Below are positions 9,454 through 59,175 of a stretch of DNA of 59,175 nucleotides, one piece after another. A program made the position numbers and the translations under genes. Every line of letters begins with the position of its first letter. Positions within the stretch are counted from its first letter, which is position 1. Source of the stretch: a virus. Where the stretch lies: the IMG/VR virus record IMGVR_UViG_3300045988_086641, positions 1 to 59,175 of that record; one strand, 5' to 3'. Below the pieces are notes generated by a model, which was not told the origin of the DNA, did not search any database, and was given only the letters and a program-made list of their open reading frames with translations.

Positions 9454-9462
9454 TAATTATAG
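9440..9462 (+). promoter_or_regulatory. Phage promoter variant CCACGTATAATAATTAT (overlaps the polymerase stop codon)
   Basis: The same 11-mer CCACGTATAAT recurs at 57155-57165. Both overlap a '...HV*' gene end and precede an RBS. Confidence 0.4.
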
Positions 9463-9515
9463 GTGGAAGGTATCCACAACCCAATCCACTTGAAAAACTA
9501 AAAGGAGGTAAAATT

Positions 9516-10286: not shown

Positions 10287-11181
10287 ATTAGATTATTTCT
10301 TTGTTGGATGGAACTCCGATTTATTATTTGATATATTGATGGAGAACAACTGTAATATGTTGCTCTCTCAATATAACAATAGGTCAATGATTAAAAAAGT
10401 TATTGATTATAAGAAAGAGCACCCAGAATATACGGGTAAATTATTTATTGATTCTGGAGCATATACAGTAAGTACTAAAGGTGATGAAGTTGATATTGAT
10501 AGTTATATTTCTTATATAAATGATATTGGAGAATATGTAGATATCATAGCTCCTCTTGATGTTATTCCAAAGTTCAAAGGGGATAAAACAGAAGAAGCAA
10601 GCGAAAGAAATTATAACTATATGATGGAGCATCTAAAGTATCCAGAAAAACTTATACCAGTCTTCCATGAAGGTGAAAGCTGGGAATATCTTAAAAAGAT
10701 TTTATCATATGGAAAAGATTACATTGCTGTAGGTGCTTTGGTTGGGGCATCTAGAAATCAAATAGAATACTTTTTAGAAAAGGTATTTCTTATTATAGAA
10801 GAATTCGAAAAGAAAACAGGAAGAAAGATAAAGGTTCATACTTTTGGAATGACCAACCAAAAACTATTAAAGAGTTTTCCTATAACAAGTGCAGATAGTA
10901 CAAGCCATATTATGTGCGCAAGTAGAGGAAGTATAATGACCGATTATGGTATTATCCCAGTCAGCGATGTTCAATCTAATTTAAAGAATCATGTATTTAA
11001 TAAATCCGATTCAGCAATTCAAAATCTTCAGAAGTATTTAGATAAACTAGGTATAAACCTAGACCAAATAACAGGAGAAAGAGGTTATATTTATAGAACT
11101 ATTATAAATGTGTACTATATTTTAGACTTCTGCAATAATTATAAGTACGAAGATAAGATAAAAAGGAAACCATTATTCTAG
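10279..11181 (+). CDS. dpdA: DpdA-like DNA guanine transglycosylase (tRNA-guanine transglycosylase homologue)
   Basis: TGT-family catalytic motif 'LFIDSGAYTV' (DSGG[FY]Q-like); sits in the preQ0 cluster; RBS GGAGG. Confidence 0.55.
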   Translation: MSKLDYFFVGWNSDLLFDILMENNCNMLLSQYNNRSMIKKVIDYKKEHPEYTGKLFIDSGAYTVSTKGDEVDIDSYISYINDIGEYVDIIAPLDVIPKFKGDKTEEASERNYNYMMEHLKYPEKLIPVFHEGESWEYLKKILSYGKDYIAVGALVGASRNQIEYFLEKVFLIIEEFEKKTGRKIKVHTFGMTNQKLLKSFPITSADSTSHIMCASRGSIMTDYGIIPVSDVQSNLKNHVFNKSDSAIQNLQKYLDKLGINLDQITGERGYIYRTIINVYYILDFCNNYKYEDKIKRKPLF

Positions 11182-11191
11182 GAGGCGTATT

Positions 11192-11602
11192 GTGTCAGAG
11201 AAGAAATATGTTAAATGGTGGGAAGTAAAAGAATACTTAAATAATTTAGTAGAAAGATTAGAAAGTACTGAAAACTTTCGTTTAGAGGATTGTCCTGGTA
11301 TATTTACATTTCCAAGAGGTGGTTTAATACTAGCAACATTGTTATCATATTTAATACATAAACCAATATTAACAAATCCAGCACCTGGTTGCATTATTAT
11401 TGATGATATTGTAGATACAGGAATAACCATGAAAAAGTATTCAGATTTAAGACATGATAAAAATTATTTTATTACCTCTATGTTTGTTCAAACAAAACAA
11501 CTATATAAGGTGTCAGATTATAATTGTGATGTTGATTATTTTGAATATGAGAAAAAAGATGAATGGATTGTTTATCCTTGGGAGGATATGAGTCAATGGT
11601 AG
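11192..11602 (+). CDS. Type I phosphoribosyltransferase-fold protein, unassigned, embedded in the deazaguanine cluster
   Basis: PRPP-binding motif 'CIIIDDIVDTGITM'; GTG start with RBS GGAGG. Confidence 0.5.
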   Translation: MSEKKYVKWWEVKEYLNNLVERLESTENFRLEDCPGIFTFPRGGLILATLLSYLIHKPILTNPAPGCIIIDDIVDTGITMKKYSDLRHDKNYFITSMFVQTKQLYKVSDYNCDVDYFEYEKKDEWIVYPWEDMSQW

Positions 11603-11799
11603 AAGTATTAGGAATTATTGCAACATTATTTATAGTAATAGCGTTTGCAATGAATAGTAAAAAGTTAATAAGAATATTTGATACAATAGGAGCCATCCTA
11701 TTTATCATTTATGGAATATTGATTAGCAGTTTAAGTGTATGGTTATTAAATGGTATTTTAGTAATAATTAACATATATAAGTTAATCAAAGAAAAGTAG
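11596..11799 (+). CDS. Small two-TM membrane protein
   Basis: Two hydrophobic helices 'VLGIIATLFIVIAFA' and 'IGAILFIIYGILISSLSVWLL'. The start overlaps the preceding stop (ATGG TAG). Confidence 0.4.
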   Translation: MVEVLGIIATLFIVIAFAMNSKKLIRIFDTIGAILFIIYGILISSLSVWLLNGILVIINIYKLIKEK

Positions 11800-11815
11800 T
11801 TCGTATAATAATTTT
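11795..11815 (+). promoter_or_regulatory. Phage promoter consensus TCGTATAAT, copy 4
   Basis: 'agtagttcgtataataatttt' before RBS GAAGGAGG of queD. Confidence 0.5.
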
Positions 11816-11830
11816 GAAGGAGGAAAGTAT

Positions 11831-12295
11831 ATGAGAGTTACAAAACATATTGAGTTTGAAACAGCACATTTATTACCAGGTTATGATGGTGGGTGTGGAA
11901 ACTTGCACGGTCATAGCTATAAGTTAGAGGTTACAGTACAAGGACCTCAAACGGATGGATGGGGAATGGTAATCGATTTCAAAAAATTGAAAAAATGTAT
12001 GGAAGAGATAGTACCAGACCATCGCTATATTTATAATGCTAAAGAACCATCAGAAATCGAAAAAGATTTAGTTGAGGTATTAAAGAAACACGATATTAAA
12101 TATCAAGGTATGCCTTTTGATACCACTGCAGAAAATATGGTAAGATACTTCGCAGAGATGATTGAACAATCTTTACAAAATAATTATGGTTACCCAGGAG
12201 TTAAGGTGGTAGAAGCAAAACTTTGGGAAACAAGTAATAGTTATGCAACTTATATAGCACCAGAGCAATTATCTTTATTTGAGGAGGAGAAATAA
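11831..12295 (+). CDS. queD: 6-carboxy-5,6,7,8-tetrahydropterin synthase QueD
   Basis: 'ETAHLLPGYDGGCGNLHGHSY' (QueD Cys-x-x-x-His-Gly-His zinc/catalytic motif). Confidence 0.8.
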   Translation: MRVTKHIEFETAHLLPGYDGGCGNLHGHSYKLEVTVQGPQTDGWGMVIDFKKLKKCMEEIVPDHRYIYNAKEPSEIEKDLVEVLKKHDIKYQGMPFDTTAENMVRYFAEMIEQSLQNNYGYPGVKVVEAKLWETSNSYATYIAPEQLSLFEEEK

Positions 12296-13017
12296 TGATA
12301 CCAGTTGCGGAAATATTTGGTCCAACTATTCAAGGGGAAGGACCTAACACTGGAATCAAAGCCTTATTTGTTAGGGTAGTTGGATGCGATTTCAAATGTA
12401 GTTGGTGCGATAGTAAATTCGCTTGGAAAGTAAATAAGGATACAAAGTATTACAAAGAAGAAGAACTAGGAAACATATTAGTAGAAAAATGTAATAAAAG
12501 TAATACTAGTAATGTAATACTAACTGGAGGAAATCCTTGTTTATATGATTTCGAAGAAGTTATTGATATCTTACATAAGAATAAGATAAAGGTAGATATT
12601 GAAACACAAGGAAGCATTTTTCCAGGATGGATGAGTAAATTAGATACTGTGGTTATTAGTCCTAAAGCACCATCTAGTGGAATGGAGGATGTTTATTATA
12701 GAATTAGCACTTGGTTAGATAGACCTGATGTTAATAATCATATAGTAATTAAAATACCAGTATTTAATGATGATGATTTTGAATTCGCCAAGAAGTATTA
12801 TGAGTTATGTGAGTATTATAGAAATGATTATAATATGAACATAGATTTATACATAAATGTAGGAAATGATGATACTTCAGCACAAGGGGATATTTCAAAA
12901 AGAATTCTGGATAATTATAGAAAACTAATTGATAAGGTTATGGCTTCAGAAATGAAAAGAGTTTATGTTATGCCTCAAGTACATACTTTAGTATGGGGAA
13001 ATAAGCAAGGAGTGTGA
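12295..13017 (+). CDS. queE: 7-carboxy-7-deazaguanine synthase QueE (radical SAM)
   Basis: 'FVRVVGCDFKCSWCDS' CxxxCxxC cluster near the N-terminus. Confidence 0.75.
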   Translation: MIPVAEIFGPTIQGEGPNTGIKALFVRVVGCDFKCSWCDSKFAWKVNKDTKYYKEEELGNILVEKCNKSNTSNVILTGGNPCLYDFEEVIDILHKNKIKVDIETQGSIFPGWMSKLDTVVISPKAPSSGMEDVYYRISTWLDRPDVNNHIVIKIPVFNDDDFEFAKKYYELCEYYRNDYNMNIDLYINVGNDDTSAQGDISKRILDNYRKLIDKVMASEMKRVYVMPQVHTLVWGNKQGV

Positions 13018-13022
13018 TTATA

Positions 13023-13634
13023 ATGAGTAAGTATAATTATGAAGCAGTAAAAGAGGCTACCAAGCAATTACTAATTGCTATGGGGCAAGACCCAGAAAGA
13101 CCTGGACTAAAAGAAACACCAAGAAGAGTAGCTGGATATTGGAAAGAGTTATTAGAGGGAGAAGAATATACTAACGCCGAAATAGCAGAAAAGTATAGTA
13201 AAGAATTCGAAGTAGGATATGACCCTATGGTAACTGTTTATCAAAAAGATTTATATAGTCATTGCGAACATCATTTAGCACTTATGTTTGATGGTTCTGT
13301 TGTAATGGGTTATATACCAGTTAAAAATGATGATGGTACTTATAAAGTATTAGGATTAAGTAAATTGTATAGAATTGCCGAAATGTGCGCAAAAAGATTA
13401 CAATTACAAGAAAAATTAGCAGCTGATATTGCTGAATGTATTTCTTTAGCTACTGGTTCTAAAGAGGTATATGTAAATCTAGATATGAAACATGGTTGCG
13501 TAAGTGCTAGAGGGGTTAAAGCATCAGGAAGTACTAATGTAACTTTTATGACAGAAGAGTTAAGAAAAGATGCAGAGGCAAGAGCCGAATTTGAAAGAAA
13601 AGCTGCTGAAATAGTAGCTAGACATTCTAAATAG
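13023..13634 (+). CDS. folE: GTP cyclohydrolase I FolE
   Basis: 'ETPRRVAGYW' and 'YSHCEHHLALMFDG' signatures. RBS AAGGAG 11 nt before ATG 13023. Confidence 0.8.
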   Translation: MSKYNYEAVKEATKQLLIAMGQDPERPGLKETPRRVAGYWKELLEGEEYTNAEIAEKYSKEFEVGYDPMVTVYQKDLYSHCEHHLALMFDGSVVMGYIPVKNDDGTYKVLGLSKLYRIAEMCAKRLQLQEKLAADIAECISLATGSKEVYVNLDMKHGCVSARGVKASGSTNVTFMTEELRKDAEARAEFERKAAEIVARHSK

Positions 13635-41947: not shown

Positions 41948-44401
41948 ATGGCTACAATTAGTTCAGTATTTAAAATGCAGGACAATGCTACGAAAACATT
42001 TAATAGCGTTGCCAATGCAATGGATAGCGTAATTGATAAAGCCGAAGAGCTTTCTAATAAGTCCTCCAACCTAGGTGCTGGGGTTTCTAGTATAAATCCG
42101 GCATTGAATCAAGCAGTATCTAGATATAACCAATTGATTTCCAAACAAGAACAAATCAATGCTAAAATAGATATGATGAGAAGACAAGAGCAATTTCTAG
42201 TTCAAGATTTGAATAGGGAGAAAAGTGCCTATAACCAGAATGAAAAAGCTATATTTAGAATTGAAAAGAGTTTAATGAATGTTAGAAATCAAAAAGAAAA
42301 CCTAATCAATCAATCTAATAGGTTAACTGATGAGATATGGGAACAAGCATCTGCAGTAAATGCCGTAGCTGATAATACTGGTAAAATTAAACCACCTCAG
42401 GATAAAATAGAAACTGGTTTTAGTAAATGGCAAACAAATGTTATAGCAATTAACCAAGCCTTACAATTAACCCAATCTATAGCAAGAGGTGTTGGTAGTG
42501 TTTTAAATTATTCTGATGAACTAACCTTAACAAAAGCTAGAATAGATTTGATAAATGATGGTCAAAGAACCACAGCCGAGTTACAAGAAGATATCTACCA
42601 AGCAGCACAAAGGTCTAGAGGTTCTTATCAAGATATGGCAAAGAGTATTGCTAAACTTGGTATGCTAGCTGGGGATGCCTTTAAGAATAATGATGAGATG
42701 GTTGCATTCACGGAGTTAATGAATAAATCATTTACGGTATCAGGAGCAAGTGAATCCGAAAAAAGTGCGGCTATGTATCAGCTAACCCAAGCAATGAGTT
42801 CTGGTATGCTACAAGGTGATGAGTTAAGGTCAATAAGAGAAAATGCTCCAATGTTCTATCAAGCTATTGCAGAATACACTGGTAAATCTACAGCAGAACT
42901 TAAAGAAATGGGTGCTAACGGAGAAATTACGGCAGATATAATGAAGAATGCCTTATTTAGTGCCGGAGATGATATAGAAGCCAAGATGGAACAAATGCCT
43001 AAAACTTTTGGTAATGCTATGACTAGTATTCAAAATAGTGCGGCATATTATTTACAGCCTGTTGCAGATAGAATATCTGAAATGCTAAATAGTGATACCT
43101 TCCAGAATTCAGTAAATGTTATATTACAAATCATTCAAAGTCTTGCTAATGGTGCTATATGGGTATTTGATGCTATTGGAAATGCCATTCAATTCTTTAA
43201 AGATAATATGTGGATAACAATTCCAGTAGTAACAGCTCTGGCGGTAGTATTAACGGGATTATTAGTTCCAGCGTTAGCATCAATGATAGGTAAAGTACTT
43301 TTATCTATTGCTACTTGGGCTATTGCTCATTGGCAGTTATTATTAGTTGCAGCAGTAATAGGTATAGTGGTTGGAGCTATAACTACAATGAACCCAGTAT
43401 TACTAACTCTGGCTGGAATAATTGGTATATTAGTATTAGCGTATGCCGCTTGGCAAGTAGCACAATGGGCTACAAATACTGCTATGTATGCTTGCCCGAT
43501 TGTTTGGATTATAGTATTAGTAATAGCATTAGTTGCAGCAATTTACTTATTCATAGATTGGATTGCAAAGGCAACTGGAATTGCTTCTAGTGGTTTAGGA
43601 ATGATTGCTGGAGGAGTAAATGTAGTAATTCAATTCTTTAAAAACTTAGGACTAATGGTAGCAAATATTGCTTTAGCAATAGGAAATGCCATTGGTGCTT
43701 TAGCAAGTAATATGATGACAGCATTCGGAAATGCTATTAAGAGCATTCAAGCTTGGTTCTGGGGATTATTGGAAACAGGAACAAATGTAATTCTTGGTAT
43801 AGTAGAAATGTTAAATAAATTACCATTCGTTGATATAGATACTAAAGGTCTTACTAGCGCCGCTAAGAAGTATGCTGATAAAAAAGCAGAGGCAGAAGAT
43901 TCAAAAGAGGAGTATAAGAATATTGCCGATGAGTTTAATAAAGGTATGAATACCTTTGAAGCATTCGGTGATGGTTGGGTAAGTGATGCCTTTAATGATG
44001 GTAAAGCGTGGGGTGATAATGCCGCAGCAAGTATTGCCGATGCAGTTGGTTCTTTTGACCCAGGTGCTATGTTAGATAGTATAATGCCAGATATGGACCA
44101 AACACAGCAAGATATGGGTGGATATGATTATTCTTCAATGATAGACCCTAACGGTAACTTACCAGTTTCTATAGAGGCTGATAAAACAAGTAATGAGGTA
44201 GACATTTCAGATGAAGATTTGAAATTACTAAAAGATATTGCTACTAAAGACTATATGTTAAATTACAAACATATAACACCAAATGTAAACATTCAATTCG
44301 GAGATGTAAAAGAAACCGCTGACATCAATGCTATTAAAGATGAATTAGATAGAATGATGCAAGAGGAATTATCTGAATTGTATGTAGTAGAGGAGGCTTA
44401 A
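41948..44401 (+). CDS. Tail tape measure protein
   Basis: 817 aa with an N-terminal coiled coil, a central hydrophobic TM block (about residues 430-560), and an 'MKNALFSAGDDIEAKMEQMPKTFGNAM' tape-measure motif. Confidence 0.75.
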   Translation: MATISSVFKMQDNATKTFNSVANAMDSVIDKAEELSNKSSNLGAGVSSINPALNQAVSRYNQLISKQEQINAKIDMMRRQEQFLVQDLNREKSAYNQNEKAIFRIEKSLMNVRNQKENLINQSNRLTDEIWEQASAVNAVADNTGKIKPPQDKIETGFSKWQTNVIAINQALQLTQSIARGVGSVLNYSDELTLTKARIDLINDGQRTTAELQEDIYQAAQRSRGSYQDMAKSIAKLGMLAGDAFKNNDEMVAFTELMNKSFTVSGASESEKSAAMYQLTQAMSSGMLQGDELRSIRENAPMFYQAIAEYTGKSTAELKEMGANGEITADIMKNALFSAGDDIEAKMEQMPKTFGNAMTSIQNSAAYYLQPVADRISEMLNSDTFQNSVNVILQIIQSLANGAIWVFDAIGNAIQFFKDNMWITIPVVTALAVVLTGLLVPALASMIGKVLLSIATWAIAHWQLLLVAAVIGIVVGAITTMNPVLLTLAGIIGILVLAYAAWQVAQWATNTAMYACPIVWIIVLVIALVAAIYLFIDWIAKATGIASSGLGMIAGGVNVVIQFFKNLGLMVANIALAIGNAIGALASNMMTAFGNAIKSIQAWFWGLLETGTNVILGIVEMLNKLPFVDIDTKGLTSAAKKYADKKAEAEDSKEEYKNIADEFNKGMNTFEAFGDGWVSDAFNDGKAWGDNAAASIADAVGSFDPGAMLDSIMPDMDQTQQDMGGYDYSSMIDPNGNLPVSIEADKTSNEVDISDEDLKLLKDIATKDYMLNYKHITPNVNIQFGDVKETADINAIKDELDRMMQEELSELYVVEEA

Positions 44402-44405
44402 GATT

Positions 44406-45101
44406 ATGATAAGTTTTTTCGCAAAATATAATGATAGGTTAATACAATTACCAGTTAATCCAGAAGATATAACAATTGATAGTAGTTCAAATAATGATAC
44501 TACTGATACAGTTGGTCAAGGTGAAATTAGTAATATAGGTTTTCCAGGATTAAAGGAGCTTACTATTAGCTCCTTCTTTCCTAAAAGATATAACGGGGAA
44601 TTATATATAAATACAGGAGGTCAATTTGAAGGACCAGAGTTTTATATTAAATTCTTTGAAGATATTAAGAAGGATAGGAAACCTTTTAGACTTATTATTA
44701 CCGATTTGAATATAAATATGCTTGTTAGTATAGAATCATTTAGTAACACCTACCAATATGGTACAGATGATGTAGATTATGAATTACAATTAAAAGAATA
44801 TAAAGAACATAATATTAGAATTCTAAAAGCAACATCTACAGGATTTGTTAGTGCTGATAGTACCACTCAAAAAGTAAGTTCAGCAACACCAACTAATACA
44901 AATAGTAATAGGGCGGTTGAGAAATCAATACCTAAAACTTATACTGTTGTTAGTGGGGATAACTTATGGACTATAGCACAAAGATTACTAGGTGATGGAA
45001 GCAGATGGAACGAGATTTATACATATAATAATAATAAGAATGTAATAGGAGGAAATCCTAATCTAATAAGACCTGGACAGGTATTATCTATTCCAAGTTA
45101 G
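44406..45101 (+). CDS. XkdP-like tail protein with C-terminal LysM domain
   Basis: LysM 'YTVVSGDNLWTIAQRLLGDGSRWNEIYTYN...IRPGQVLSIP'. Confidence 0.55.
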   Translation: MISFFAKYNDRLIQLPVNPEDITIDSSSNNDTTDTVGQGEISNIGFPGLKELTISSFFPKRYNGELYINTGGQFEGPEFYIKFFEDIKKDRKPFRLIITDLNINMLVSIESFSNTYQYGTDDVDYELQLKEYKEHNIRILKATSTGFVSADSTTQKVSSATPTNTNSNRAVEKSIPKTYTVVSGDNLWTIAQRLLGDGSRWNEIYTYNNNKNVIGGNPNLIRPGQVLSIPS

Positions 45102-45114
45102 GAGGCGAACACTT

Positions 45115-46104
45115 ATGAAGTATGATAGCATAGAGTTAATAGTACAAAGTTCCGAAGATGGAACTATATGGGATTTAAGTAATTTGGCAAGTTCTATAAG
45201 TACTAGTAAACCTATTGATAGTTCTACTGGTAAGTGTTCTTTTACTGTAAATACAAATGTTCAAAAAATAAGAATACCAATGGGTAGTACAGTTAGTTTA
45301 ACTGTTACCCAAGATGGAAAAAGAAAGGGTAAATTCTTTGGTTATGTATTTACTAGTGAACCTACTGGTAAAGAAGTTAAAATAACAGCATACGACCAGT
45401 TAAGATATCTTAAAAATAATGAAACTTATGTTCTTACTGGAAGTACTATGGAAAAAATTATTAAACTAATTGGAAATGACTTTGGATTAAGATTAGGTGT
45501 AATTGAAGGTAGTGGATATATTTTACCAGAGAGGGTAGAAGATAATAAAGCACTTGGAGATATAATTCAAAGAGCAATTGATTTTACTTTACAAGGAACT
45601 GGTAGGCAATATATTATTAGAGATGAATTCGGATACTTATGTTGCAGAGATGTTTCTAAATTAGTTACAAATCTAGTTGTAGGTGATGTTAGTTTATTAA
45701 AAGAATATAGTTATAAAGAAAGTATTGATAATGAAACCTACAACAGCGTAAAATTATATAAAGATAATGAAGATACTGGTAAGAGAGAAACTTATATAGT
45801 AATGGATAGTAATAATATTAAAAGATGGGGTAAATTACAGAAGTATGAATCTGTTGATGAAAATATGACTTCAGCGCAAATACAAGAAAAGGCACAACAA
45901 TATCTATCTTTATATAACAAAGTAGAAAAAACCTTAACTTTAAAATGCGAAGGAGTAATAGATTTAGAACCAGGTAATGGTATTTATTTAGATATAACCG
46001 ATATACCTGGGGTAGTATTTAGACAAAATGCTTTAATAACTAAAATTGATGATACCTACGAGTCAGGTATACATACAATGGACTTGGAGGTGAGATTTGA
46101 ATGA
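45115..46104 (+). CDS. XkdQ / late-control-D-like baseplate hub protein
   Basis: 329 aa; position after the LysM protein matches the PBSX-type module. Confidence 0.4.
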   Translation: MKYDSIELIVQSSEDGTIWDLSNLASSISTSKPIDSSTGKCSFTVNTNVQKIRIPMGSTVSLTVTQDGKRKGKFFGYVFTSEPTGKEVKITAYDQLRYLKNNETYVLTGSTMEKIIKLIGNDFGLRLGVIEGSGYILPERVEDNKALGDIIQRAIDFTLQGTGRQYIIRDEFGYLCCRDVSKLVTNLVVGDVSLLKEYSYKESIDNETYNSVKLYKDNEDTGKRETYIVMDSNNIKRWGKLQKYESVDENMTSAQIQEKAQQYLSLYNKVEKTLTLKCEGVIDLEPGNGIYLDITDIPGVVFRQNALITKIDDTYESGIHTMDLEVRFE

Positions 46105-46712
46105 GTATGATTACTACAGTAAATGAAGCTATAAATAGAAAACTTGCTTCAATTAGTTTTACAGATATTATTATAGGAACCGTTCAATCTCTTGAACCTT
46201 TAGAAATAAGAATAAACAATAGAATCGTAATAGGGCTGAGCTTCATTGAACCTATGAGTCTAGGATTAGATGACAATTCTCCTAGCTCAGCCCTACCACT
46301 TACTGTGGGAGAAAAAATTCAAATGATTAGGTACAGTAACGGACAACGATTCTATATATTAGGGAAAAGTGCCAGTGCCAGTACAATTAACTATAATGAG
46401 TTACAAAATAAACCAAAGTTAAATACGGCAAATAGTACTTCTCTATCAGTTAATGAGTCGGAGGAACTTAAAGGTATTATATCACTTCATAAAGTAGCTA
46501 AAACTGGTAGTTATAACGATTTATTAAATAAACCAGCACCAGTTGATTTAAGTAATTATGTTACATTAGATGGTGCACAAACTATTAGTGGTAAGAAAAC
46601 ATTTAGTACATTACCAGAAAGTTCAAAAACACCGACTACTGCTAATCAATTAATCAATAAGAATTATGTTGATACCAATTTTCTTCAATTCGAGGTAATT
46701 GAAGAATTTTAG
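46101..46712 (+). CDS. Tail-fibre-repeat protein
   Basis: Two copies of the phage fibre repeat 'YN[ED]L.NKP' ('YNELQNKPKL', 'YNDLLNKPAP'). Confidence 0.45.
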   Translation: MSMITTVNEAINRKLASISFTDIIIGTVQSLEPLEIRINNRIVIGLSFIEPMSLGLDDNSPSSALPLTVGEKIQMIRYSNGQRFYILGKSASASTINYNELQNKPKLNTANSTSLSVNESEELKGIISLHKVAKTGSYNDLLNKPAPVDLSNYVTLDGAQTISGKKTFSTLPESSKTPTTANQLINKNYVDTNFLQFEVIEEF

Positions 46713-46737
46713 TATAAAAGAAAGGAGAGTGTTCAAA

Positions 46738-46785
46738 ATGAACATTAGATTAGTACATGGGGGGGGGGAACGAGTTATTTATTAA
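46738..46785 (+). CDS. 15-codon mini-ORF containing a G10 homopolymer (MNIRLVHGGGERVIY)
   Basis: RBS AAAGGAGAG 9 nt before the ATG; the G10 run at 46759-46768 encodes GGG. Confidence 0.3.
   Translation: MNIRLVHGGGERVIY
46759..46768. repeat. poly-G tract (G10)
   Basis: Read directly; the genome is ~30% GC. Confidence 0.95.
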
Positions 46786-46842
46786 GCTATGTTCCTTCTC
46801 TAATATCTCCGAAAGGAGGTATAAATAGATTAGGTGATGCCA

Positions 46843-47280
46843 ATGGCTAAGGCGGTTCAGTTAAAAGATAAAAATGGAAATAAGGTATTTGCTGCACCGT
46901 GGATGCCTATTGGTTCAATATTCTTAACCGTATCTAATGATAATCCAAGTAAATACTTTGGTGGTACTTGGGAAAAGATTTCTGGAGGATTTCTTTGGGG
47001 GTGTAATACCTCTGTTGATAACAACCTTATGGATAGTAGTGTTGGTCATACAAAAAGCTTTGATACAACATTAACAATTAACCAAATACCAAGTCATAAT
47101 CATAATATTGTTGTAGATAAAGCAGGATACGATGTTGGTTTGGCTTTATATGGCGTAAATTTAGTACAAAAAAATAGCAAATATGTAGATATGAATTTAG
47201 CACGACCAACTGGTGGAGGAAAAGGACATTCACATGATATTCCGCATATTGGCGTATGGGTATGGAAAAGAATAAAATAA
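46843..47280 (+). CDS. Tail-collar-domain protein, paralogue 1 (MdpB-like; candidate receptor-binding tip)
   Basis: N-terminus 'MAKAVQLKDKNGNK...PIGSIF...NPS.YFGGTWE'; HxH 'SHNHN'; C-terminus 'GGGKGHSHDIPHIGVWVWKRI'. The start is ambiguous (GTG 46834, ATG 46837 or ATG 46843). Confidence 0.55.
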   Translation: MAKAVQLKDKNGNKVFAAPWMPIGSIFLTVSNDNPSKYFGGTWEKISGGFLWGCNTSVDNNLMDSSVGHTKSFDTTLTINQIPSHNHNIVVDKAGYDVGLALYGVNLVQKNSKYVDMNLARPTGGGKGHSHDIPHIGVWVWKRIK

Positions 47281-47294
47281 TCTATTAGAATAGA

Positions 47295-47744
47295 ATGAAG
47301 GCAGTTTATTTAAAAGATAAAACAGGTAATAAAATTGTAACCACTCCATATTATAGGATAGGAGATTTATTTCTTACTACTATAGCAACAAATCCATCAA
47401 ACTTTCTTGGTGGTAAGTGGGAACTATTTGGTCCAGGTAGATGTTTAGTATGCGTAAATACTTCTGATAGTGACTTTAATACAGTTAAGAAAATTGGAGG
47501 AAGTAAAATACATAAACACGTTAGTGCATTAACTTGGGTACAAAAGAATGGTCAGTATGCATTAGGAGTTACAAATGACCTAGGTACCGATAAAGGCGTA
47601 TATAGAGATTTTTATGGAAATTGGACTGATACTGTTAATGTTCCAAGAACTGATTTAAGTTGGGAAAAATTAGGATATCATACAACAGAAAATAGCAGTT
47701 TACAGCCTTATATTACTTGTTATGTTTGGATAAGAACAGCTTAA
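47295..47744 (+). CDS. Tail-collar-domain protein, paralogue 2 (divergent)
   Basis: 'MKAVYLKDKTGNKIV...RIGDLFLTT...NPSNFLGGKWE' and C-terminus 'YITCYVWIRTA'. Confidence 0.5.
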   Translation: MKAVYLKDKTGNKIVTTPYYRIGDLFLTTIATNPSNFLGGKWELFGPGRCLVCVNTSDSDFNTVKKIGGSKIHKHVSALTWVQKNGQYALGVTNDLGTDKGVYRDFYGNWTDTVNVPRTDLSWEKLGYHTTENSSLQPYITCYVWIRTA

Positions 47745-47763
47745 TTAAAGATACTCAAATAAT

Positions 47764-47853
47764 ATGAGTAAAGCAGTAAAATTAGTAAATAACCAATACC
47801 TTTCCACTCAATATGTAGTGCATAAGAGGGGGGGGATGGTATTATCTAAATAA
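47764..47853 (+). CDS. Frame-separated N-terminal segment of paralogue 3 (MSKAVKLVNNQYLSTQYVVHKRGG...), ends after a G8 tract
   Basis: Matches the 'M-x-KAV-x-L' N-termini of the other paralogues; stops 5 nt before the downstream body. Confidence 0.4.
   Translation: MSKAVKLVNNQYLSTQYVVHKRGGMVLSK
47828..47835. repeat. poly-G tract (G8) at the frame break of paralogue 3
   Basis: Loss of one G fuses 47764.. in frame with 47858..48232 with no intervening stop. Confidence 0.9.
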
Positions 47854-47857
47854 TTTA

Positions 47858-48232
47858 TTGGATAACATTTATCCAATAGGTTCCATATTTATATCTACTG
47901 ATACCACAAACCCAAGTACTTACTTCGGCGGAACGTGGGAGAGAATTAAAGGAAGATTTCTTTTAGCGGCAGATGATAGTACTTATAAAATTGGTTCAAC
48001 TGGTGGAGAAGCAACACACGCACTAACCATTAATGAAATGCCTTCCCACGGTCACAATTATGAAGCTTATATTGATAAGGATCCACTTGGTGGCTATGAT
48101 AAAGTGCTTGTTTATGGAAATCCAGCAGGAACGCAATATTATACTTTTAATGTTTTTCCAACCGGTGGTTCACAGCCTCACAATAATATGCCTCCATATT
48201 TAGCAGTATATATATGGAAAAGAATTAGTTAG
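47858..48232 (+). pseudogene. Tail-collar-domain protein, paralogue 3, body lacking its own ATG/RBS (frame-disrupted or phase-variable)
   Basis: '...DNIYPIGSIFISTDTTNPSTYFGGTWE'; 'SHGHN'; 'GGSQPHNNMPPYLAVYIWKRI'. The track starts it at TTG with no SD; its true N-terminus lies in the -1 frame upstream. Confidence 0.5.
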
Positions 48233-48248
48233 ATATTTACCGAATTAA

Positions 48249-48335
48249 ATGGCAAAAAGAGTAAAATTAAAAAATGATATGTATTTGGATACTAACCTAA
48301 TTGGAGGAGGTGAAAATTATGCCTACTCCAATTAA
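48249..48335 (+). CDS. Mini-ORF upstream of paralogue 4 (MAKRVKLKNDMYLDTNLIGGGENYAYSN), overlapping its RBS and start
   Basis: Same M-x-K-x-VKL...GGG architecture as the 47764 segment and the 46738 mini-ORF. Confidence 0.3.
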   Translation: MAKRVKLKNDMYLDTNLIGGGENYAYSN

Positions 48336-48768
48336 ACTAAAACAAGGTACTAATTATTACCAACCATTATGTTATTTCCCTATTGGTTATATATACTTAA
48401 GTATTTCTAATGTTAATCCAGGACAATTCTTTGGTGGTACTTGGGAACCTATAAAGGATAGATTCTTATTACTAGCTGGTGATACTTATAAGGGTGGTCA
48501 AACCGGTGGAGAAGCAACTCATATACTAACCCTTAATGAATTAGCAGCCCACGAACATGGAATGGTAAAAGGCTCATACAGTGGTAATGTTTTGGCAGAT
48601 AGAGGTGATGGTGGAGGTGGAGGTGTTCGAGTTTCATACGCCCCAAATGTCGCAGTTCAGTCAAACTGTTGGATAGGAAACTATATGGAATCAAGAGGAG
48701 GTAATAAACCACATAATAATATGCCACCTTACATAGTTGTTTATGGTTGGGTTAAGATAAGTAATTAG
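48319..48768 (+). CDS. Tail-collar-domain protein, paralogue 4
   Basis: RBS GGAGGAGGTG 6 nt before ATG 48319; 'PIGYIYLSISNVNPGQFFGGTWE'; 'AAHEHG'; 'GGNKPHNNMPPYIVVYGWVKI'. Confidence 0.55.
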   Translation: MPTPIKLKQGTNYYQPLCYFPIGYIYLSISNVNPGQFFGGTWEPIKDRFLLLAGDTYKGGQTGGEATHILTLNELAAHEHGMVKGSYSGNVLADRGDGGGGGVRVSYAPNVAVQSNCWIGNYMESRGGNKPHNNMPPYIVVYGWVKISN

Positions 48769-48803
48769 TAATCATAAAATATTTAATGAAGGAGGTAAGA
48801 TAC

Positions 48804-49196
48804 ATGTTACCGGAGTTAAATCTAATAAATCAATTAGACGAACAGATGACATCTTATACATATAATATAAATAGAAATACCAATCGTATTTCTGGTTACA
48901 TAGACGATAAAGATGCCATTATACAATCCATCTATTTAATACTTCAAACAGAAAGATATGAATCAATGATTTATAACTGGTATTATGGGGTAGAATTTGA
49001 TGGTCTAATTGGTAAACAAAGAGATTATGTCACCAGCGAACTACAAAGAGTTATTAGAGAAGCATTAACCGAAGATGATAGAATTCTAGAAGTAAGTGAT
49101 TTTGATATTACTTATACAGAAGATAGTGCTTCAATAGTATTTTTAGTAGAAACAAACATTGGTGATATAACAATTGAATGGGAGGTGAATATTTAA
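48804..49196 (+). CDS. Baseplate wedge protein (gp25/GPW-like)
   Basis: 'SIYLILQTERYESMIYNWYYGVEF' resembles the GPW/gp25 'I..L.T..GER...P.fG' motif; RBS GGAGG. Confidence 0.4.
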   Translation: MLPELNLINQLDEQMTSYTYNINRNTNRISGYIDDKDAIIQSIYLILQTERYESMIYNWYYGVEFDGLIGKQRDYVTSELQRVIREALTEDDRILEVSDFDITYTEDSASIVFLVETNIGDITIEWEVNI

Positions 49197-50260
49197 TGAA
49201 TGAAATACCTACTTATGAACAAATATTACAGAGATGTTTAGATAGAGTTCCTAATAGTATTGATAAGAGACAAGGGTCTATTATATATGATGCTTTAGCA
49301 CCATGTTGTGTAGAATTAGCTCAAATGTACATAGAATTATCAGGAGTTTATGAACAAGTATTTATTGATACTGCCGTAGGGGATGCTTTAGATGCCTTGG
49401 TTAAACAGAATGGAGTAACCAGAAAAGAAGCTACTAAAGCAATTAGAAAAGGTGAATTCAATATGGTGGTACCTGTTGATTCTAGATTTTCTGATGGAAC
49501 TAATTCTTATATAGTTATTTCTAATATAGAAGGAACTAATAATTCTAGGTTACAATGTGAACAAGCTGGTATTGTTGGTAATAGTTATTATGGTTCTCTT
49601 ACTCCGATTAGCTTTATTACTGGACTAACTAAAGCAGAATTAACTGATATCATTGATTTAGGGGATGATACAGAAACAGATGATGCTTTAAGGGAAAGAT
49701 ATATGGAAGTTGTTACAGCACCTCAATTTGGTGGTAATGTTTCAGATTATCAGAATAAAGTAAAAGCTCTTACGGGCGTTGGTGGATGTAAAGTTGTTCC
49801 TATATGGAATGGTGGCGGAACAGTTAAGTTAATTATTACTAATAGCCAATATGGGGTTCCAGATGGAACATTAGTAAGTGAAGTTCAACAAGCAGTTGAC
49901 CCAACTCAAGACCAAACAGGAATGGGTATTGCTCCAATAGGACATATCGTTACAGTAGTTGGTGCAGAAGCATTAAATATTTCTATATCAGCAACATTTA
50001 CCTTACAAGCTGGAACTAGTGCGGAGGATATTCAAGAAAGTGTAAATGAGGTTGTAGATAATTATTTCAATTCTTTAGCTAAAGATTGGGATAAAGAAGA
50101 AAATATTATTGTAAGGGTAAGTCAACTAGAAACAAGGTTATTAGGAATAGCTGGGGTTTTAGATATTACTAATACTAAAATAAATAATGGAACTGCTAAT
50201 ATTTCGTTAGATAGTGACCAAATACCTGTAAGAAATGGAGATGTGGTAATCAATGTCTAA
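49196..50260 (+). CDS. Baseplate J-like protein
   Basis: 360 aa; positional call within the PBSX-like XkdS-T-U order; RBS GGAGG. Confidence 0.45.
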   Translation: MNEIPTYEQILQRCLDRVPNSIDKRQGSIIYDALAPCCVELAQMYIELSGVYEQVFIDTAVGDALDALVKQNGVTRKEATKAIRKGEFNMVVPVDSRFSDGTNSYIVISNIEGTNNSRLQCEQAGIVGNSYYGSLTPISFITGLTKAELTDIIDLGDDTETDDALRERYMEVVTAPQFGGNVSDYQNKVKALTGVGGCKVVPIWNGGGTVKLIITNSQYGVPDGTLVSEVQQAVDPTQDQTGMGIAPIGHIVTVVGAEALNISISATFTLQAGTSAEDIQESVNEVVDNYFNSLAKDWDKEENIIVRVSQLETRLLGIAGVLDITNTKINNGTANISLDSDQIPVRNGDVVINV

Positions 50261-50816
50261 TATTCATAAATATTTACCTAAAGTATTACAACCCATTTTA
50301 GAGTTTCAGCTAATTAACCAAGATTTAGATATAGAATTATCTTTATTAGATGGTTATATAGCTGATATAAATAAGGAAACAATAGTTCAAACAGCTTCTG
50401 ACTATGGTATAAGTAAATGGGAAAATGCCCTTGGAATTATACCTGGAGACACAGATTCTTTAGAAGTTAGAAGATTTAGAGTTAATAATATTCTTACAAG
50501 TAAGCTACCATATACTATTAGATGGTTAAGACAAAAACTTACAGAAATTACAGGTTCATCTACTGGATGGACCTTGAATATGAATTATCAAGATTATACG
50601 GCAACAATTATTCTATCAGGTCTTGATACAGAATTGATGTTGGAAGTAGAAAAACAATTAAGAAATGCTATACCAGCCAATATAGAGCTAGAAATAGGGG
50701 GACCTTCTATAGCTGGAGGAAATGTTTTAGTTGGAATAGCAATGAATTATGGTACTAAATATAAAATACCTAGTGCTTATAATATAAATGAAGAAGGAGG
50801 TATAGTAAATGTTTAA
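50253..50816 (+). CDS. Baseplate/tail protein I-like (XkdU-like)
   Basis: Positional call after the J-like gene. Confidence 0.35.
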   Translation: MSNIHKYLPKVLQPILEFQLINQDLDIELSLLDGYIADINKETIVQTASDYGISKWENALGIIPGDTDSLEVRRFRVNNILTSKLPYTIRWLRQKLTEITGSSTGWTLNMNYQDYTATIILSGLDTELMLEVEKQLRNAIPANIELEIGGPSIAGGNVLVGIAMNYGTKYKIPSAYNINEEGGIVNV

Positions 50817-51612
50817 TGGATTACAATTAACTAATAAAGGTTTAGAATTACTTACCAATCTATTAAATGGTCATAATATCCAATTCACTCATATTAAGAT
50901 GGGTGACGGGGAAGCACCATCGGATATATCTATTATGACTGATTTAGTTAGTGTTAAGCAAAGTTTACCAATAGCGCGTAGTTCTATTATAGATTATAAA
51001 ACTATGTTAATTGGTGCTAACCTATATGGTGAAACAGTAACTGCGGCATTCTATTGGAAGGAAGTTGGGTTATACGCCAAAGATTTAGATGGCGATAATA
51101 CAGAATACTTATTTAGTTATGATAATGCTGGAGATGAAGCAAGTTATATACCAGCAGGAGGAGCTGTTTCAGAGCAGTTAATAGATTTAAGCGTTATAGT
51201 AGGAAATGTAAATAATGTAACTATTACTATTGATAAATCATTAGTGTATGCCACACAAGATGATATGGACCAAGCTATCACCAATGTAACTAATACCTTA
51301 ACTACTAAAATAAATACAGATGTTGGTGCAGTTAATACAGCATTAACAAATCATATCAATAATAAAGCTAATCCACATACTGTTACTAAAGGGCAGGTCG
51401 GATTAGGAAGCGTCAGTAATTATGGGGTAGCCAGTCAGCAAGAAGCACAAAATGGTTCAGTAGATAATAAATACATGACACCATTAAAAACAAAACAAGC
51501 TGTAGAGGCTTATGGTGTTATTAGTGATGGAAATATTATTTTAAAAATTGGTGGAACCCAACCACAAGTACAAGCAGGAAAAACCATTATTTGGATTGAT
51601 ACTTCAAGTTAG
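50809..51612 (+). CDS. Tail fibre protein
   Basis: Position after the baseplate genes; Ser/Thr/Asn-rich. Confidence 0.45.
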   Translation: MFNGLQLTNKGLELLTNLLNGHNIQFTHIKMGDGEAPSDISIMTDLVSVKQSLPIARSSIIDYKTMLIGANLYGETVTAAFYWKEVGLYAKDLDGDNTEYLFSYDNAGDEASYIPAGGAVSEQLIDLSVIVGNVNNVTITIDKSLVYATQDDMDQAITNVTNTLTTKINTDVGAVNTALTNHINNKANPHTVTKGQVGLGSVSNYGVASQQEAQNGSVDNKYMTPLKTKQAVEAYGVISDGNIILKIGGTQPQVQAGKTIIWIDTSS

Positions 51613-53646: not shown

Positions 53647-53775
53647 ATGCCCGAAGAATTTAATGATATTGAATTAAAAGAGCAGCCAGAAGAAGAAATG
53701 GGTCCAGAGCATGAAGAAAGTTTTGGTATTCCTGGCGAAGATGTAGAATTCGAAGAAGAGGAGGTGGAAGAGTAA
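53647..53775 (+). CDS. small highly acidic protein (42 aa)
   Basis: RBS AAAGGAGG before ATG 53647; it ends where the endolysin starts. Confidence 0.35.
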   Translation: MPEEFNDIELKEQPEEEMGPEHEESFGIPGEDVEFEEEEVEE

Positions 53776-54872
53776 TGGCAGTATTTGGTATTGATATTAG
53801 TACTTGGCAAAGAGGTTATCCTTATGATAAAGCTAACTCTGAAGGAGTTAAGTTTGCTATCTTAAGAGCTGGTTATAGTCAAACTAAAGATAATCAATTT
53901 GAAACCCATTATGCTAACGCTAAAAGATTAGGATGGGGGGTTGGAGCTTATTGGTATATGTATGCCAAATCAGTTTCAGCAGCACAAGCAGAAGCAAGAG
54001 CATTCTTAAAAGCAATCGCTGGTAAACAATTTGATTATCCAGTATATCTAGATATAGAAGACCCTAGTATTAGAGGATTAGGTAGAAATACTTTAAACGC
54101 TATGGTCAAAGCCTTTGGAGAAATCATTGAAGCAGCTGGTTATTACTTTGGTGTTTATACTAATGTAGATTGGTATAGAAATGTTATTAGTGGTTCGGAA
54201 TTAAATAAGAAATACGATTGGTGGATTGCTAGTTGGTCTAAAAATAAACCAAGTGGTGTAAATGCTGGATTATGGCAATTCGGTGGTAGTACAAATGTTC
54301 TTAGAAGTCCTAAAATAGCAGGAGTAGTTACAGACCAAGATTATGCTTATAAAGATTATCCAAGCATTATCAAAGAAGCTGGTTTGAATGGTTATGGTAG
54401 CGGTTCTGTAGCACCAACACCTGGTAAAACTATTGAACAATTAGCTCAAGAAGTTATTCAAGGAGTATGGGGTAACGGACAAGATAGAAAGAATGCTTTA
54501 ACTAATGCCGGATATGATTATTCAGCAGTACAAGCTAGAGTAAATGAAATTCTAGGAACTGGTTCAAAACCCGCTAAAAAATCTAATGAGGAAATTGCTA
54601 ACGAAGTTATTGCTGGTAAATGGGGAAATGGTAATGATAGAAAGAATAGACTTACCAATGCCGGTTATGATTATAGTGTTATTCAAGCTATTGTAAATAA
54701 AAAACTTGGTTCTAGTAATAGTAAAGCTGTATACCATAAAGTGGTGTATGGGGATACTTTATATGATATAGCTATTAAATATGGTACAACAATCGGTGCT
54801 ATCCAAAAACTAAACCCTAAAATTACTAACGCTAATAAAATCTATGCAGGGGATACAATTAGAGTTAAGTAA
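53775..54872 (+). CDS. Endolysin: GH25 muramidase + 2x CW_7 (Cpl-7-like) repeats + C-terminal LysM
   Basis: GH25 N-terminus 'FGIDISTWQRGYPYD...KFAILRAGY'; two 'GVWGNGQDRKNALTNAGYDYSAVQ' / 'GKWGNGNDRKNRLTNAGYDYSVIQ' repeats; LysM 'YHKVVYGDTLYDIAIKYGTTIGAIQKLN'. Confidence 0.8.
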   Translation: MAVFGIDISTWQRGYPYDKANSEGVKFAILRAGYSQTKDNQFETHYANAKRLGWGVGAYWYMYAKSVSAAQAEARAFLKAIAGKQFDYPVYLDIEDPSIRGLGRNTLNAMVKAFGEIIEAAGYYFGVYTNVDWYRNVISGSELNKKYDWWIASWSKNKPSGVNAGLWQFGGSTNVLRSPKIAGVVTDQDYAYKDYPSIIKEAGLNGYGSGSVAPTPGKTIEQLAQEVIQGVWGNGQDRKNALTNAGYDYSAVQARVNEILGTGSKPAKKSNEEIANEVIAGKWGNGNDRKNRLTNAGYDYSVIQAIVNKKLGSSNSKAVYHKVVYGDTLYDIAIKYGTTIGAIQKLNPKITNANKIYAGDTIRVK

Positions 54873-58914: not shown

Positions 58915-59175
58915 TGTGGAAGCTTGAAGATATCGCAAAAGAATGTGGGGTTAAAAAAGATGCTATATTAGCATTTATTAAATATCGTATTGAATATAAT
59001 ATGCCTGTTCCTCAACCAGAACCATATCAAAAATCTAAATATGTTTATAGCGAAGAAAGTGCAAAAGAAATCATTAACTTATTTAAGAATAAAAAGTATG
59101 GAGAAATGTCCGAGTATAACTATAAACACAGATATGGTAAAGCATTTAGAGAAAAATACAAAAGAGAAAAAAAAC
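58915..59175 (+). CDS. Small HTH-like DNA-binding protein, spans the circular junction (continues to window position 130)
   Basis: RBS GAGGAGG; 'LEDIAKECGVKKDAILAFIK' is helix-turn-helix-like. The frame continues through the terminal overlap. Confidence 0.45.

Follow-up and report, generated by a model that had tools for sequence, protein, structure and literature searches.

Why should a phage genome of 31 % GC hold two long runs of guanine, both in the same small group of tail genes? The question is raised by IMG/VR virus record IMGVR_UViG_3300045988_086641, the whole of which (59,175 nt, here called the window) was analysed and represents a complete phage genome with all genes on the + strand. 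Between the genes for a central spike/fibre protein and a gp25-like sheath initiator it carries a cassette of four small tandem paralogues, and a preliminary description had proposed that poly-G tracts in this cassette switch receptor-binding tips on and off. In the analysis reported here, the tracts quite probably act as slipped-strand contingency loci that diversify the expression of these tail-tip proteins.

Occurrence of poly-G tracts

The G10 and G8 tracts of the preliminary description were both found, at 46759–46768 and 47828–47835, and its view that chance is a poor explanation for them was borne out. They are the only G runs of at least 7 in the 59,175 nt, and an independent and identically distributed model of the same composition predicts 0.11 runs of G8 or longer and 0.004 of G10 or longer. 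There are also three G6 runs, at 1598, 16749 and 53935, and all C runs are shorter than 6. Among the glycine codons only one is rarer than GGG, which accounts for 9 % of them in the genome, and the long ORFs contain 84 Gly-Gly pairs without a single GGG-GGG. As at a contingency locus, a long uninterrupted repeat lies in, or just 5' of, an ORF beyond what chance and codon usage would give. The ~17-kb loci of relatives likewise had G runs of at least 7 in the cassette only.

One of the G6 runs (53935–53940) lies in the gene for a GH25-CW_7-LysM endolysin (53775–54872), and was also G6 in contigs L003 (13042–13047) and L007 (12763–12768), whose Baseplate_J proteins were 78–96 % identical to that of the window. 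This run serves as an internal control: shorter runs of G, when located in an essential gene, are stable.

Tract length in related genomes

Related genomes were collected from IMG/VR, ENA, Logan and NCBI with Baseplate_J and the fused paralogue 3 as queries, giving about 30 contigs (labelled L with a number), mostly of 57–61 kb. Homologous uninterrupted tracts of G7–G12 were found in about 30 contigs, with flanks 70–99 % identical. The preliminary description had recommended such a comparison, which revealed ON (in-frame) and OFF (out-of-frame) alleles side by side and near-identical pairs that differed at a tract only. The window and its ENA counterpart L136 had no mismatch in 6,375 nt, the sole difference being a leader tract of G10 against G9; L147 and L148 had none in 4,961 nt and differed only in a junction tract of G11 against G9; and in IMG sample 3300031994 the contigs L098 and L008 overlapped by 136 nt and differed by G9/G11 only. 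The length polymorphism among near-identical genomes is again that of a contingency locus, and tract mutation appears to outpace point mutation by far.

Homopolymer sequencing or assembly error would account for such pairs differently: the true tracts would be in frame, paralogue 3 intact and the length differences noise. It would fit the near-identical contigs that differ in G runs alone, some of which are possibly re-assemblies of the same reads (ENA, Logan, IMG), and the contigs that break at a tract (L005 and L009 begin at or just after one). However, some 15 contigs of 12–40x coverage, derived from many different studies and assemblers, have an out-of-frame consensus, and the same pipelines called an in-frame G10. 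Error also leaves unexplained why long uninterrupted G runs are conserved only here, at 31 % GC and against codon usage, and why there are stable interrupted versions (GGGAGGGGGG in L004, G8+AG in L113). We regard it as unlikely.

The junction tract in paralogue 3

As had been described, the G8 tract separates the N-terminal module (N-module) of paralogue 3 from its body, which lies in a different frame, and loss of one G restores the fusion. G7 gave an ORF of 155 aa and G10 one of 156 aa. The body is intact despite the frameshift upstream; its frame is open from 47819 and its first start codon is TTG 47858. In relatives the junction has the context ...CATAAGA-Gn-(A/C)TGG..., with the lengths listed in Table 1. 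With G10 a full ORF was present every time, with the linker ...VHKRGGGWYY, and the out-of-frame junctions in about 15 contigs were all followed by an intact body. Length here toggles an intact ORF in frame (G10) and out of frame (G8, G9 and G11), in the manner of a contingency locus. A second type of junction (...HNLEGGGRVSLENAL...) was ON with G10 and OFF with G9, and also occurred in the interrupted form already mentioned.

The same dichotomy was seen among proteins. Within the best 120 protein clusters, 29 homologue clusters were full length, with the N-module in frame with the body, against 26 that were body-only and started at an internal MDNIYP. Six of the seven body-only proteins that were looked up were genuine frameshifts, and the C-terminus was conserved in 24 of the 26 body-only clusters, indicating that OFF alleles are not decaying.

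At the level of sequence, the junction switch is evident. G10 or G7 at the Gly-Gly-Gly linker would give full paralogue 3, and G8 (the state of the window), G9 or G11 would give a peptide of ~29 aa, with the body either untranslated or translated minus its docking module. Both out-of-frame N-module ORFs end 5–10 nt upstream of TTG 47858, which suggests that reinitiation in the OFF state might yield a body without the docking module.

The body of paralogue 3 opens with a near-perfect palindrome, TTATTGGATAA-CAT-TTATCCAATAG (47852–47884), that encloses TTG 47858. In L153 (GCA_051866615.1; 3501–3863) the junction is G10 and in frame within a 152-aa ORF, and the annotated protein, a 120-aa 'phage baseplate protein', begins at the internal TTG. 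Gene callers under-call the N-module start, which lacks a Shine–Dalgarno sequence (SD), even in ON alleles.

The preliminary description had allowed for ribosomal or transcriptional slippage as well as slippage of DNA. In programmed recoding, ribosomal (-1/+1) or RNA-polymerase slippage at a fixed slippery site would make the short peptide and the full protein from one genotype. G GGG GGG is formally a slippery heptamer, the commonest OFF allele (G9) needs a -1 shift, a 14-bp palindrome follows 16 nt downstream of the tract and some leaky recoding on G8–G11 is plausible. In recoding sites, however, length and frame relation are fixed, whereas here close relatives mix in-frame G10 with G8, G9 and G11, which would need shifts of opposite sign, and tract length is not conserved. 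The nearest strong hairpin, at 16 nt, is outside the usual 5–9 nt for a stimulatory structure, and an Rfam search for a known RNA family, which also counts against recoding, gave no match. DNA-level slippage is preferred because tract length and frame vary between relatives, and recoding is in our judgement quite improbable.

The leader tract upstream of paralogue 1

The G10 tract lies in a 15-codon leader ORF upstream of paralogue 1; this mini-ORF, and the one upstream of paralogue 4, were present as previously described. The leader SD is strong (duplex energy -11.9 kcal/mol, genome median -8.9), and every relative likewise has a strong SD before the tract, with an ATG 6–9 codons upstream of it. 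Among 20 variants the tract was G7 in two, G9 in five, G10 in 10, G11 in two and G12 in one, and it was uninterrupted in three leader types (MNIRLVH-, MFRIIR- and MLFISKMYE-). L007 has neither tract nor hairpins, and its 12-codon leader ends on the paralogue 1 ATG.

The same three stops follow the tract in all 20 variants. The early stop E lies at +14 to +17 nt, stop M at +57 to +64 nt, just beyond AUAUCUCC-GAAA-GGAGGUAU, and stop L at +79 to +82 nt, on the paralogue 1 ATG. In the window these correspond to 46783–46785, 46826–46828 and TAA 46848–46850, the last overlapping ATG 46843 (ATGGCTAA); the other in-frame starts of paralogue 1 are GTG 46834 and ATG 46837. Thirteen of the 20 leaders, including that of the window, were in state E, four in M and three in L. 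The leader region (46715–46870) was predicted to fold with a minimum free energy of -42.7 kcal/mol (z -4.5) into two hairpins, one pairing the G run with CCUUCUC and the other containing the paralogue 1 SD (Table 1). The consensus fold was kept in nine variants and hairpin 2 was invariant in nine relatives. Further downstream, paralogues 2 and 3 have no SD (+0.2 and -1.0 kcal/mol), their starts lying 14 and 19 nt beyond the stop of the gene before, and paralogue 4 has an SD of -16.0 kcal/mol.

Given the three fixed stops, the hairpinned SD and the SD-less starts of paralogues 2 and 3, the leader frame is proposed to set translational coupling. Tract length would select the stop: E in the loop of the G-tract hairpin, as in the window, M past the SD hairpin, or L on the paralogue 1 ATG. 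Only in states M and L would ribosomes unfold the SD hairpin and reinitiate, raising translation of paralogue 1, from which coupling would carry translation to paralogues 2 and 3. This role of the leader frame in coupling, into paralogue 1 and from there to the genes behind it, is put forward tentatively, as a possibility that is somewhat less than even. With slightly greater reserve still, the leader tract may be seen as a novel device of phase variation, a three-position translational 'gearbox' that interrupts neither the regulated gene nor its promoter, with a second tract of relatives acting alike before paralogue 4 (L137 compared with L139). Together with in-ORF junction switches, such a gearbox would let one phage genotype yield many tip combinations.

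Variable promoter spacers are found in phase-variable promoters of Neisseria or Haemophilus, and the leader tract might likewise act on transcription. AT-rich -35/-10-like hexamers flank it (TTAGTA ... TATTTA), the gene upstream ends in an AT-rich hairpin with TTTT behind it, and the phage encodes its own sigma factor, with which promoters are possibly non-canonical. Against this, a G10 spacer would be 19–23 nt, and the strong SD and ATG before the tract in every relative point to translation. A consensus scan for sigma-70 promoters and terminators found nothing spanning the tracts, with the proviso that the phage sigma factor may use non-canonical promoters. We consider a promoter spacer highly unlikely.

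An AT-rich inverted repeat, TTCTTCAATT / AATTGAAGAA followed by TTTT (46669–46718), spans the stop of the spike/fibre gene just before the leader SD and might act weakly as a terminator or attenuator; because its G-C pairs are too few, the scan for terminators passed over it. The sigma-70 region-2 protein of the phage is encoded at 1971–2579 (Pfam E 1.5e-8), and late promoters are perhaps non-canonical for this reason, which limits what a sigma-70 scan excludes.

Table 1. Features of the cassette, its surroundings and the corresponding tracts in relatives. Positions refer to the window unless a contig is named.
Feature	Location	Strand	Remarks
Central spike/fibre protein, 203 aa	46101..46712	+	Pfam DUF2577 E 9e-7, BppL_N E 9e-4
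Leader	46721..46785	+	SD AAAGGAG (46721-46727); 15-codon ORF, ATG 46738, MNIRLVHGGGERVIY, stop 46783-46785 (G10)
Poly-G tract 1 (G10)	46759..46768	+	In leader ORF; sets leader frame
Predicted RNA hairpin 1	46761..46801	+	Poly-G arm with UUCCUUCUC; early-frame UAA (46783-46785) in loop
Predicted RNA hairpin 2	46803..46822	+	AUAUCUCC-GAAA-GGAGGUAU; contains paralogue 1 SD GGAGG (46815-46819)
Paralogue 1 (Gp10_C)	46834..47280	+	Pfam E 5e-15; ORF 46843-47280
Paralogue 2 (Gp10_C, 149 aa)	47295..47744	+	Pfam E 5e-18
N-module ORF, paralogue 3	47764..47853	+	MSKAVKLVNNQYLSTQYVVHKRGG..., 29 aa in G8 state; SD-less, 19 nt after paralogue 2 stop
Poly-G tract 2 (G8)	47828..47835	+	N-module/body junction, Gly-Gly-Gly linker; out of frame here
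Paralogue 3 body (Gp10_C, 124 aa)	47858..48232	+	From TTG 47858; Pfam E 2e-24
Mini-ORF, deletion scar	48249..48335	+	MAKRVKLKNDMYLDTNLIGGGENYAYSN; 5' N-module of deleted fifth gene joined to its 3' flank
Paralogue 4 (Gp10_C)	48303..48768	+	Including SD; ATG 48319, ORF 48319-48768; Pfam E 2e-14
Sheath initiator (gp25/XkdS-like)	48804..49196	+	Downstream border of cassette; Pfam Sheath_initiator E 3e-25
QueC	9423-10286	+	preQ0 pathway
DpdA-like transglycosylase, weak match	10243-11181	+	NCBIfam E 3e-5, far under cutoff
QueD/PTPS	11831-12295	+	preQ0 pathway
Radical-SAM QueE-like gene	12295-13017	+	preQ0 pathway
GTP cyclohydrolase I	13014-13634	+	preQ0 pathway
Junction G8	Window, L136		OFF
Junction G9	L137-L143, L148-L150, L098 (n=11)		OFF
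Junction G10	L144, L145, L146, L151, L152, L153		ON
Junction G11	L147, L008		OFF
Junction G8+AG	L113		ON
3'-end tract	L137 3824-3832
3'-end tract	L138 3824-3832
3'-end tract	L139 2018-2027
3'-end tract	L152 3923-3930
Gp10_C array, LE2-3	L002 4600-8650
Gp10_C array, BitterVaud1	L001 3468-4480

The region upstream of paralogue 4

The mini-ORF upstream of paralogue 4 had been taken for a switch analogous to the others, an interpretation that did not survive the comparison with relatives. An intact 148-aa non-collar gene in L137 (3389–3835) and its flank show the mini-ORF to be a deletion scar, the flank holding the SD of paralogue 4. A third switch was accordingly rejected: the terminal 'GGG' codons, GGAGGAGGT, are simply part of the very strong SD of paralogue 4 itself (GGAGGAGGTG, 48303–48312).

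Relatives carry a third tract, of G8, G9 or G10, at the 3' end of this non-collar cassette gene (...VGINLGGG*), which in the window is deleted, leaving the scar. With G9 the ORF stops at the tract, and G10 adds 22 codons across the SD and start of paralogue 4.

Erosion of this kind might suggest that the whole system is in decay, paralogue 3 being a pseudogene and the leader tract what is left, without function, of an earlier N-module/poly-G junction. Besides the scar, the leader does look like a shortened N-module (MNIRLVH-GGG compared with ...YVVHKRGGG), the tract is missing in L007 and the whole cassette in L010. But the OFF bodies have stayed whole, 24 of the 26 clusters retaining conserved termini; ON and OFF alleles alternate between genomes that are almost identical; and tracts remain free of interruptions in three leader types. 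Decay would seem very unlikely.

The Gp10_C paralogues

The preliminary description had assigned the four paralogues one tail-collar domain each. Their number and single-domain make-up held, and the Pfam label did not. Every paralogue consists of a single Pfam PF21939 (Gp10_C) domain, at 55–88 bits against a gathering score of 27 bits, and a full-length homologue, P0003, reached 97 bits; PF07484 'Collar' gave no match for any paralogue even at E ≤ 10, and membership of that family was rejected. The IMG product name, 'microcystin-dependent protein', reflects a related COG. The paralogues were 30–44 % identical to paralogue 1. Of the motifs said to be common to all, HxH was present in four of four, and the C-terminal HNNMPPY..VY.W in paralogues 3 and 4 only.

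For a full-length homologue, the top Foldseek matches were to the C-terminal domain of T4 gp10 (2fl8_A, E 1.5e-5; 2fkk, E 4e-5; probability 1.0), with TM scores of only ~0.3 from a monomer AlphaFold2 model of pLDDT 64, and a PDB sequence search likewise pointed to this domain. The confidence of this model was low.

Full-length homologues comprise an N-module (M(S/A)KAVKL.N..YL......VHKRGGG), a core that is conserved as far as the HxH and a C-terminus GG.Q.HNNMPPYLVVYIWKR. The loop between HxH and C-terminus was 23 % identical, compared with ~79 % in the flanks, and conserved flanks with a hypervariable loop are a pattern typical of a specificity-determining region. PHROG profiles matched the C-termini of tail and tail-fibre proteins, and the Gp10_C domain was 45–51 % identical to the last ~142 aa of Lactobacillus delbrueckii phage antireceptors. 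These matches, together with the fusion and N-module exchanges described below, point to the N-module as a docking adaptor and to the Gp10_C body as the distal binding domain. The paralogues are probably tail-tip, receptor-binding proteins, which would presumably compete for a single place of attachment close to the central spike fibre, and from the domain family we infer that the cassette would have a consequence for host range.

Two relatives have a related sequence on the spike itself. In L004 (5248–6072) a DUF2577 spike-fibre protein is fused in frame to Gp10_C (274 aa, junction ...NDLVDKPAPYWPIGSIY), and in L010 (7212–7619) a 135-aa spike protein has a degenerate C-terminal IYPVGS...GEWEL motif. 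On the strength of these two cases, the central spike may at first have borne the collar-like domain as its own tip.

The N-module (M(S/A)KA(V/I)K(L/F).N..YLDT(R/K)G.VHN...) also occurred on C-domains other than Gp10_C, in L005 (503–1006), L008 (581–1042) and L137 (3389–3835), for which no Pfam match was recorded. This suggests that the N-module may be a modular docking peptide with exchangeable binding domains.

Genome and baseplate context

The window is an IMG contig, to which ENA contig k119_160281 (59,174 nt; L136) is a near twin. Positions 1–119 and 59057–59175 are identical, and this 119-nt identity is explained as the overlap of a k=119 de Bruijn assembly, the genome being circular or terminally redundant with a unique length of 59,056 nt. 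Replication genes encode a family-A DNA polymerase with exonuclease, DnaB, primase, beta clamp, clamp loader and RecA, and the structural genes (terminase, SPP1-type portal, capsid E and sheath) are those of a phage with a contractile tail.

Pfam matches gave the gene order tape measure, LysM, YQBQ/XkdQ, DUF2577 spike with fibre repeats and cassette, followed by gp25-like sheath initiator, Baseplate_J, Mu gp48-like (gp48/YmfQ-like) and tail fibre. The spike/fibre gene directly upstream of the cassette encodes a DUF2577 (XkdR-like) N-terminus, 'YNDLLNKP' fibre repeats and a BppL_N-like C-terminus, and downstream the sheath initiator opens with MLPELN, as do its homologues in relatives. This is a PBSX/phiCD119-like baseplate order, identical to that of Clostridioides difficile phage phiMMP01 except for the inserted cassette, and the window Baseplate_J was ~47 % identical to its C. 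difficile phage counterparts. In phiMMP01 the gp25-like gene directly follows the DUF2577 gene, indicating that the cassette is an insertion, and L010 lacks it; the claim that it separates two genes that are normally adjacent was therefore well founded.

A full 7-deazaguanine (preQ0) pathway (9423–13634) adjoins the replication genes, and the phage probably modifies its own guanines. The host is probably a low-GC gut Firmicute. A related 61.6-kb contig (L153, NCBI GCA_051866615.1) was binned with a Romboutsia timonensis metagenome-assembled genome, a weak hint since the contig is probably the phage itself binned into it, and a scan of genome contigs with Baseplate J found only distant high-GC Oscillospiraceae prophages without tracts and thus yielded no assignment to a host. 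A near-identity search of 44400–51600 against INPHARED gave no match, indicating that this database contains no annotated close relative.

Discussion

The cassette would be an accessory set of small, probably trimeric, tail-tip proteins inserted into the baseplate operon, each with a short conserved N-terminal docking module (M-x-KAV-x-LK...) and a domain of the T4 gp10 C-terminal type with a hypervariable central loop. Poly-G lengths would change by slipped-strand mispairing in DNA replication, and the phage population would hold virions with differing tip sets, hedging against variation in the host receptor. The conserved polymorphic tracts, the coexistence of alleles and the intact bodies sustain the original proposal of a slippage-prone cassette with ON/OFF switching. 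Each of the rival explanations accounts for part of the evidence and fails on the conserved, length-polymorphic tracts, on the occurrence of ON and OFF alleles with intact bodies, or on the SD-ATG context.

Several points weigh against this explanation. Contigs from ENA, Logan and IMG that differ at a tract only may be separate assemblies of the same reads; the discordance would then come from reads that were mixed or prone to error, and some of the variation in length is perhaps homopolymer noise of sequencing or assembly. The variation is uncalibrated, the compared stretches offering only one A7 as a control homopolymer, and the ON/OFF census is biased by the choice of contigs. As to the leader, 13 of 20 genomes are in the early-stop frame, the 'low' state of the model; GTG 46834, 14 nt from the SD, might initiate regardless; and any effect on paralogues 2 and 3 is purely conjectural. 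The leader hairpins are nearly invariant, with one compensatory pair only, and these sequences are too conserved for covariation, which leaves the hairpins as predictions. The fold assignment, given the poor AlphaFold model, comes mainly from sequence profiles.

Long repeats that shift the frame reversibly are characteristic of bacterial contingency loci such as lic1 of Haemophilus influenzae and pilC/opa of Neisseria. Between the multi-start lic1 switch and the three-state leader proposed here there is only a loose resemblance. Poly-G contingency loci also include cj1421/cj1422 of Campylobacter jejuni (PMC8713573). In common with these loci, the cassette has a repeat near the 5' end of an ORF and states of the G9/G10 type, and its frame would likewise shift reversibly by slipped-strand mispairing. 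Unlike them, it is carried by a virus with a family-A polymerase, clamp and clamp loader, and slippage rates are perhaps set by these phage enzymes. The mechanism matches known contingency loci; the leader switch, should it be confirmed, would add a new variant to them.

To our knowledge, poly-G phase variation of receptor-binding proteins has so far been documented mainly in Campylobacter phages, and experimental proof of it comes from these phages only. In these (Fletchervirus), poly-G tracts give phase-variable expression of receptor-binding proteins, according to the passages of PMC10579305 and PMC12823448 that cite Sorensen et al. 2021 (Cell Rep 35:109214). There too, long G homopolymers lie in receptor-binding-type genes of an AT-rich genome, and their length switches an ORF ON or OFF; the phenotypic subpopulations that arise there would have a counterpart here. 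The Campylobacter phage genomes are hard to assemble across the tracts (PMC8696038), and these phages also replace dG (PMC10516641), a likeness to the guanine replacement/modification pathway carried here. The present phage, known from sequence alone, differs in belonging to a PBSX/phiCD119-like baseplate lineage with a probable Gram-positive gut host. Its targets are small single-domain Gp10_C paralogues in tandem that share a docking module, one tract encodes a Gly linker precisely where the two modules meet, and another is located in a leader ORF upstream instead of in the gene that it would regulate.

In T2/T4 and other coliphages, repeats of at least 6 bases undergo reversible frameshifts as a form of bet-hedging (Gomez, Barrick & Waters, 10.1101/2025.10.21.683753); these repeats are short, spread across all gene classes and under-represented in tail-fibre genes, whereas the tracts here are long (8–12), few and confined to a receptor-tip cassette. 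Mu G-segment and P1 C-segment inversion and the diversity-generating retroelement of Bordetella phage BPP-1 are other switches of phage tropism (PMC10579305), and the cassette would resemble them in providing alternative receptor-binding tips in one phage population. An invertible segment of the Mu G or shufflon type was rejected here: the genes are all on the + strand and no flanking inverted repeats of more than 22 nt were found, with no recombinase search made and the ORFs not all scanned for an invertase or reverse transcriptase.

The likeness to the T4 gp10 C-terminal domain (PDB 2FKK/2FL8; related to gp11/gp12) comprises profile and fold matches, the HxH and the C-terminal ...PY..VY.W strand. 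In T4 the domain is part of gp10, a wedge protein of 602 aa; here it is free-standing (124–156 aa) with an N-module of 20–36 aa, in four tandem copies. Identity of 45–51 % over the last ~142 residues was found with the Gp71/ORF19 antireceptors of L. delbrueckii phages LL-H, LL-Ku, Ld3 and c5, in which the domain is the C-terminus of a siphovirus fibre of ~650 aa and no poly-G is known. LL-H Gp71 is a genetically defined host-range determinant that binds lipoteichoic acid, and its host-range mutations (residues 380–543) merely border the shared domain (PMC3870949). Tandem small Gp10_C genes (130–160 aa) also occur in the tail modules of Eggerthella phage LE2-3, with seven copies variously annotated as tail, tail fibre or baseplate wedge, and Bifidobacterium phage BitterVaud1. 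Both are high in GC and had no homopolymer switch in the stretch examined; as these phages are unrelated, the multi-paralogue arrangement appears to be widespread.

The cassette, with its four to five small genes, shared docking module and hypervariable loop, offers a compact system for competition between tips at one docking site, and is also suited to asking whether a tract in a leader ORF tunes translation by coupling. If the interpretation is correct, gene callers systematically misannotate such receptor genes as truncated (26 of 55 clusters), and a single consensus genome would be unreliable for predicting the host range of these phages. The logic of the Campylobacter phage switches would then recur in gut myoviruses of ~59 kb that form an unrelated family without cultured members, and of which public assemblies already show dozens of natural ON/OFF alleles, and contingency loci would be a more general bet-hedging strategy of phages with respect to host range, including in the human or animal gut.

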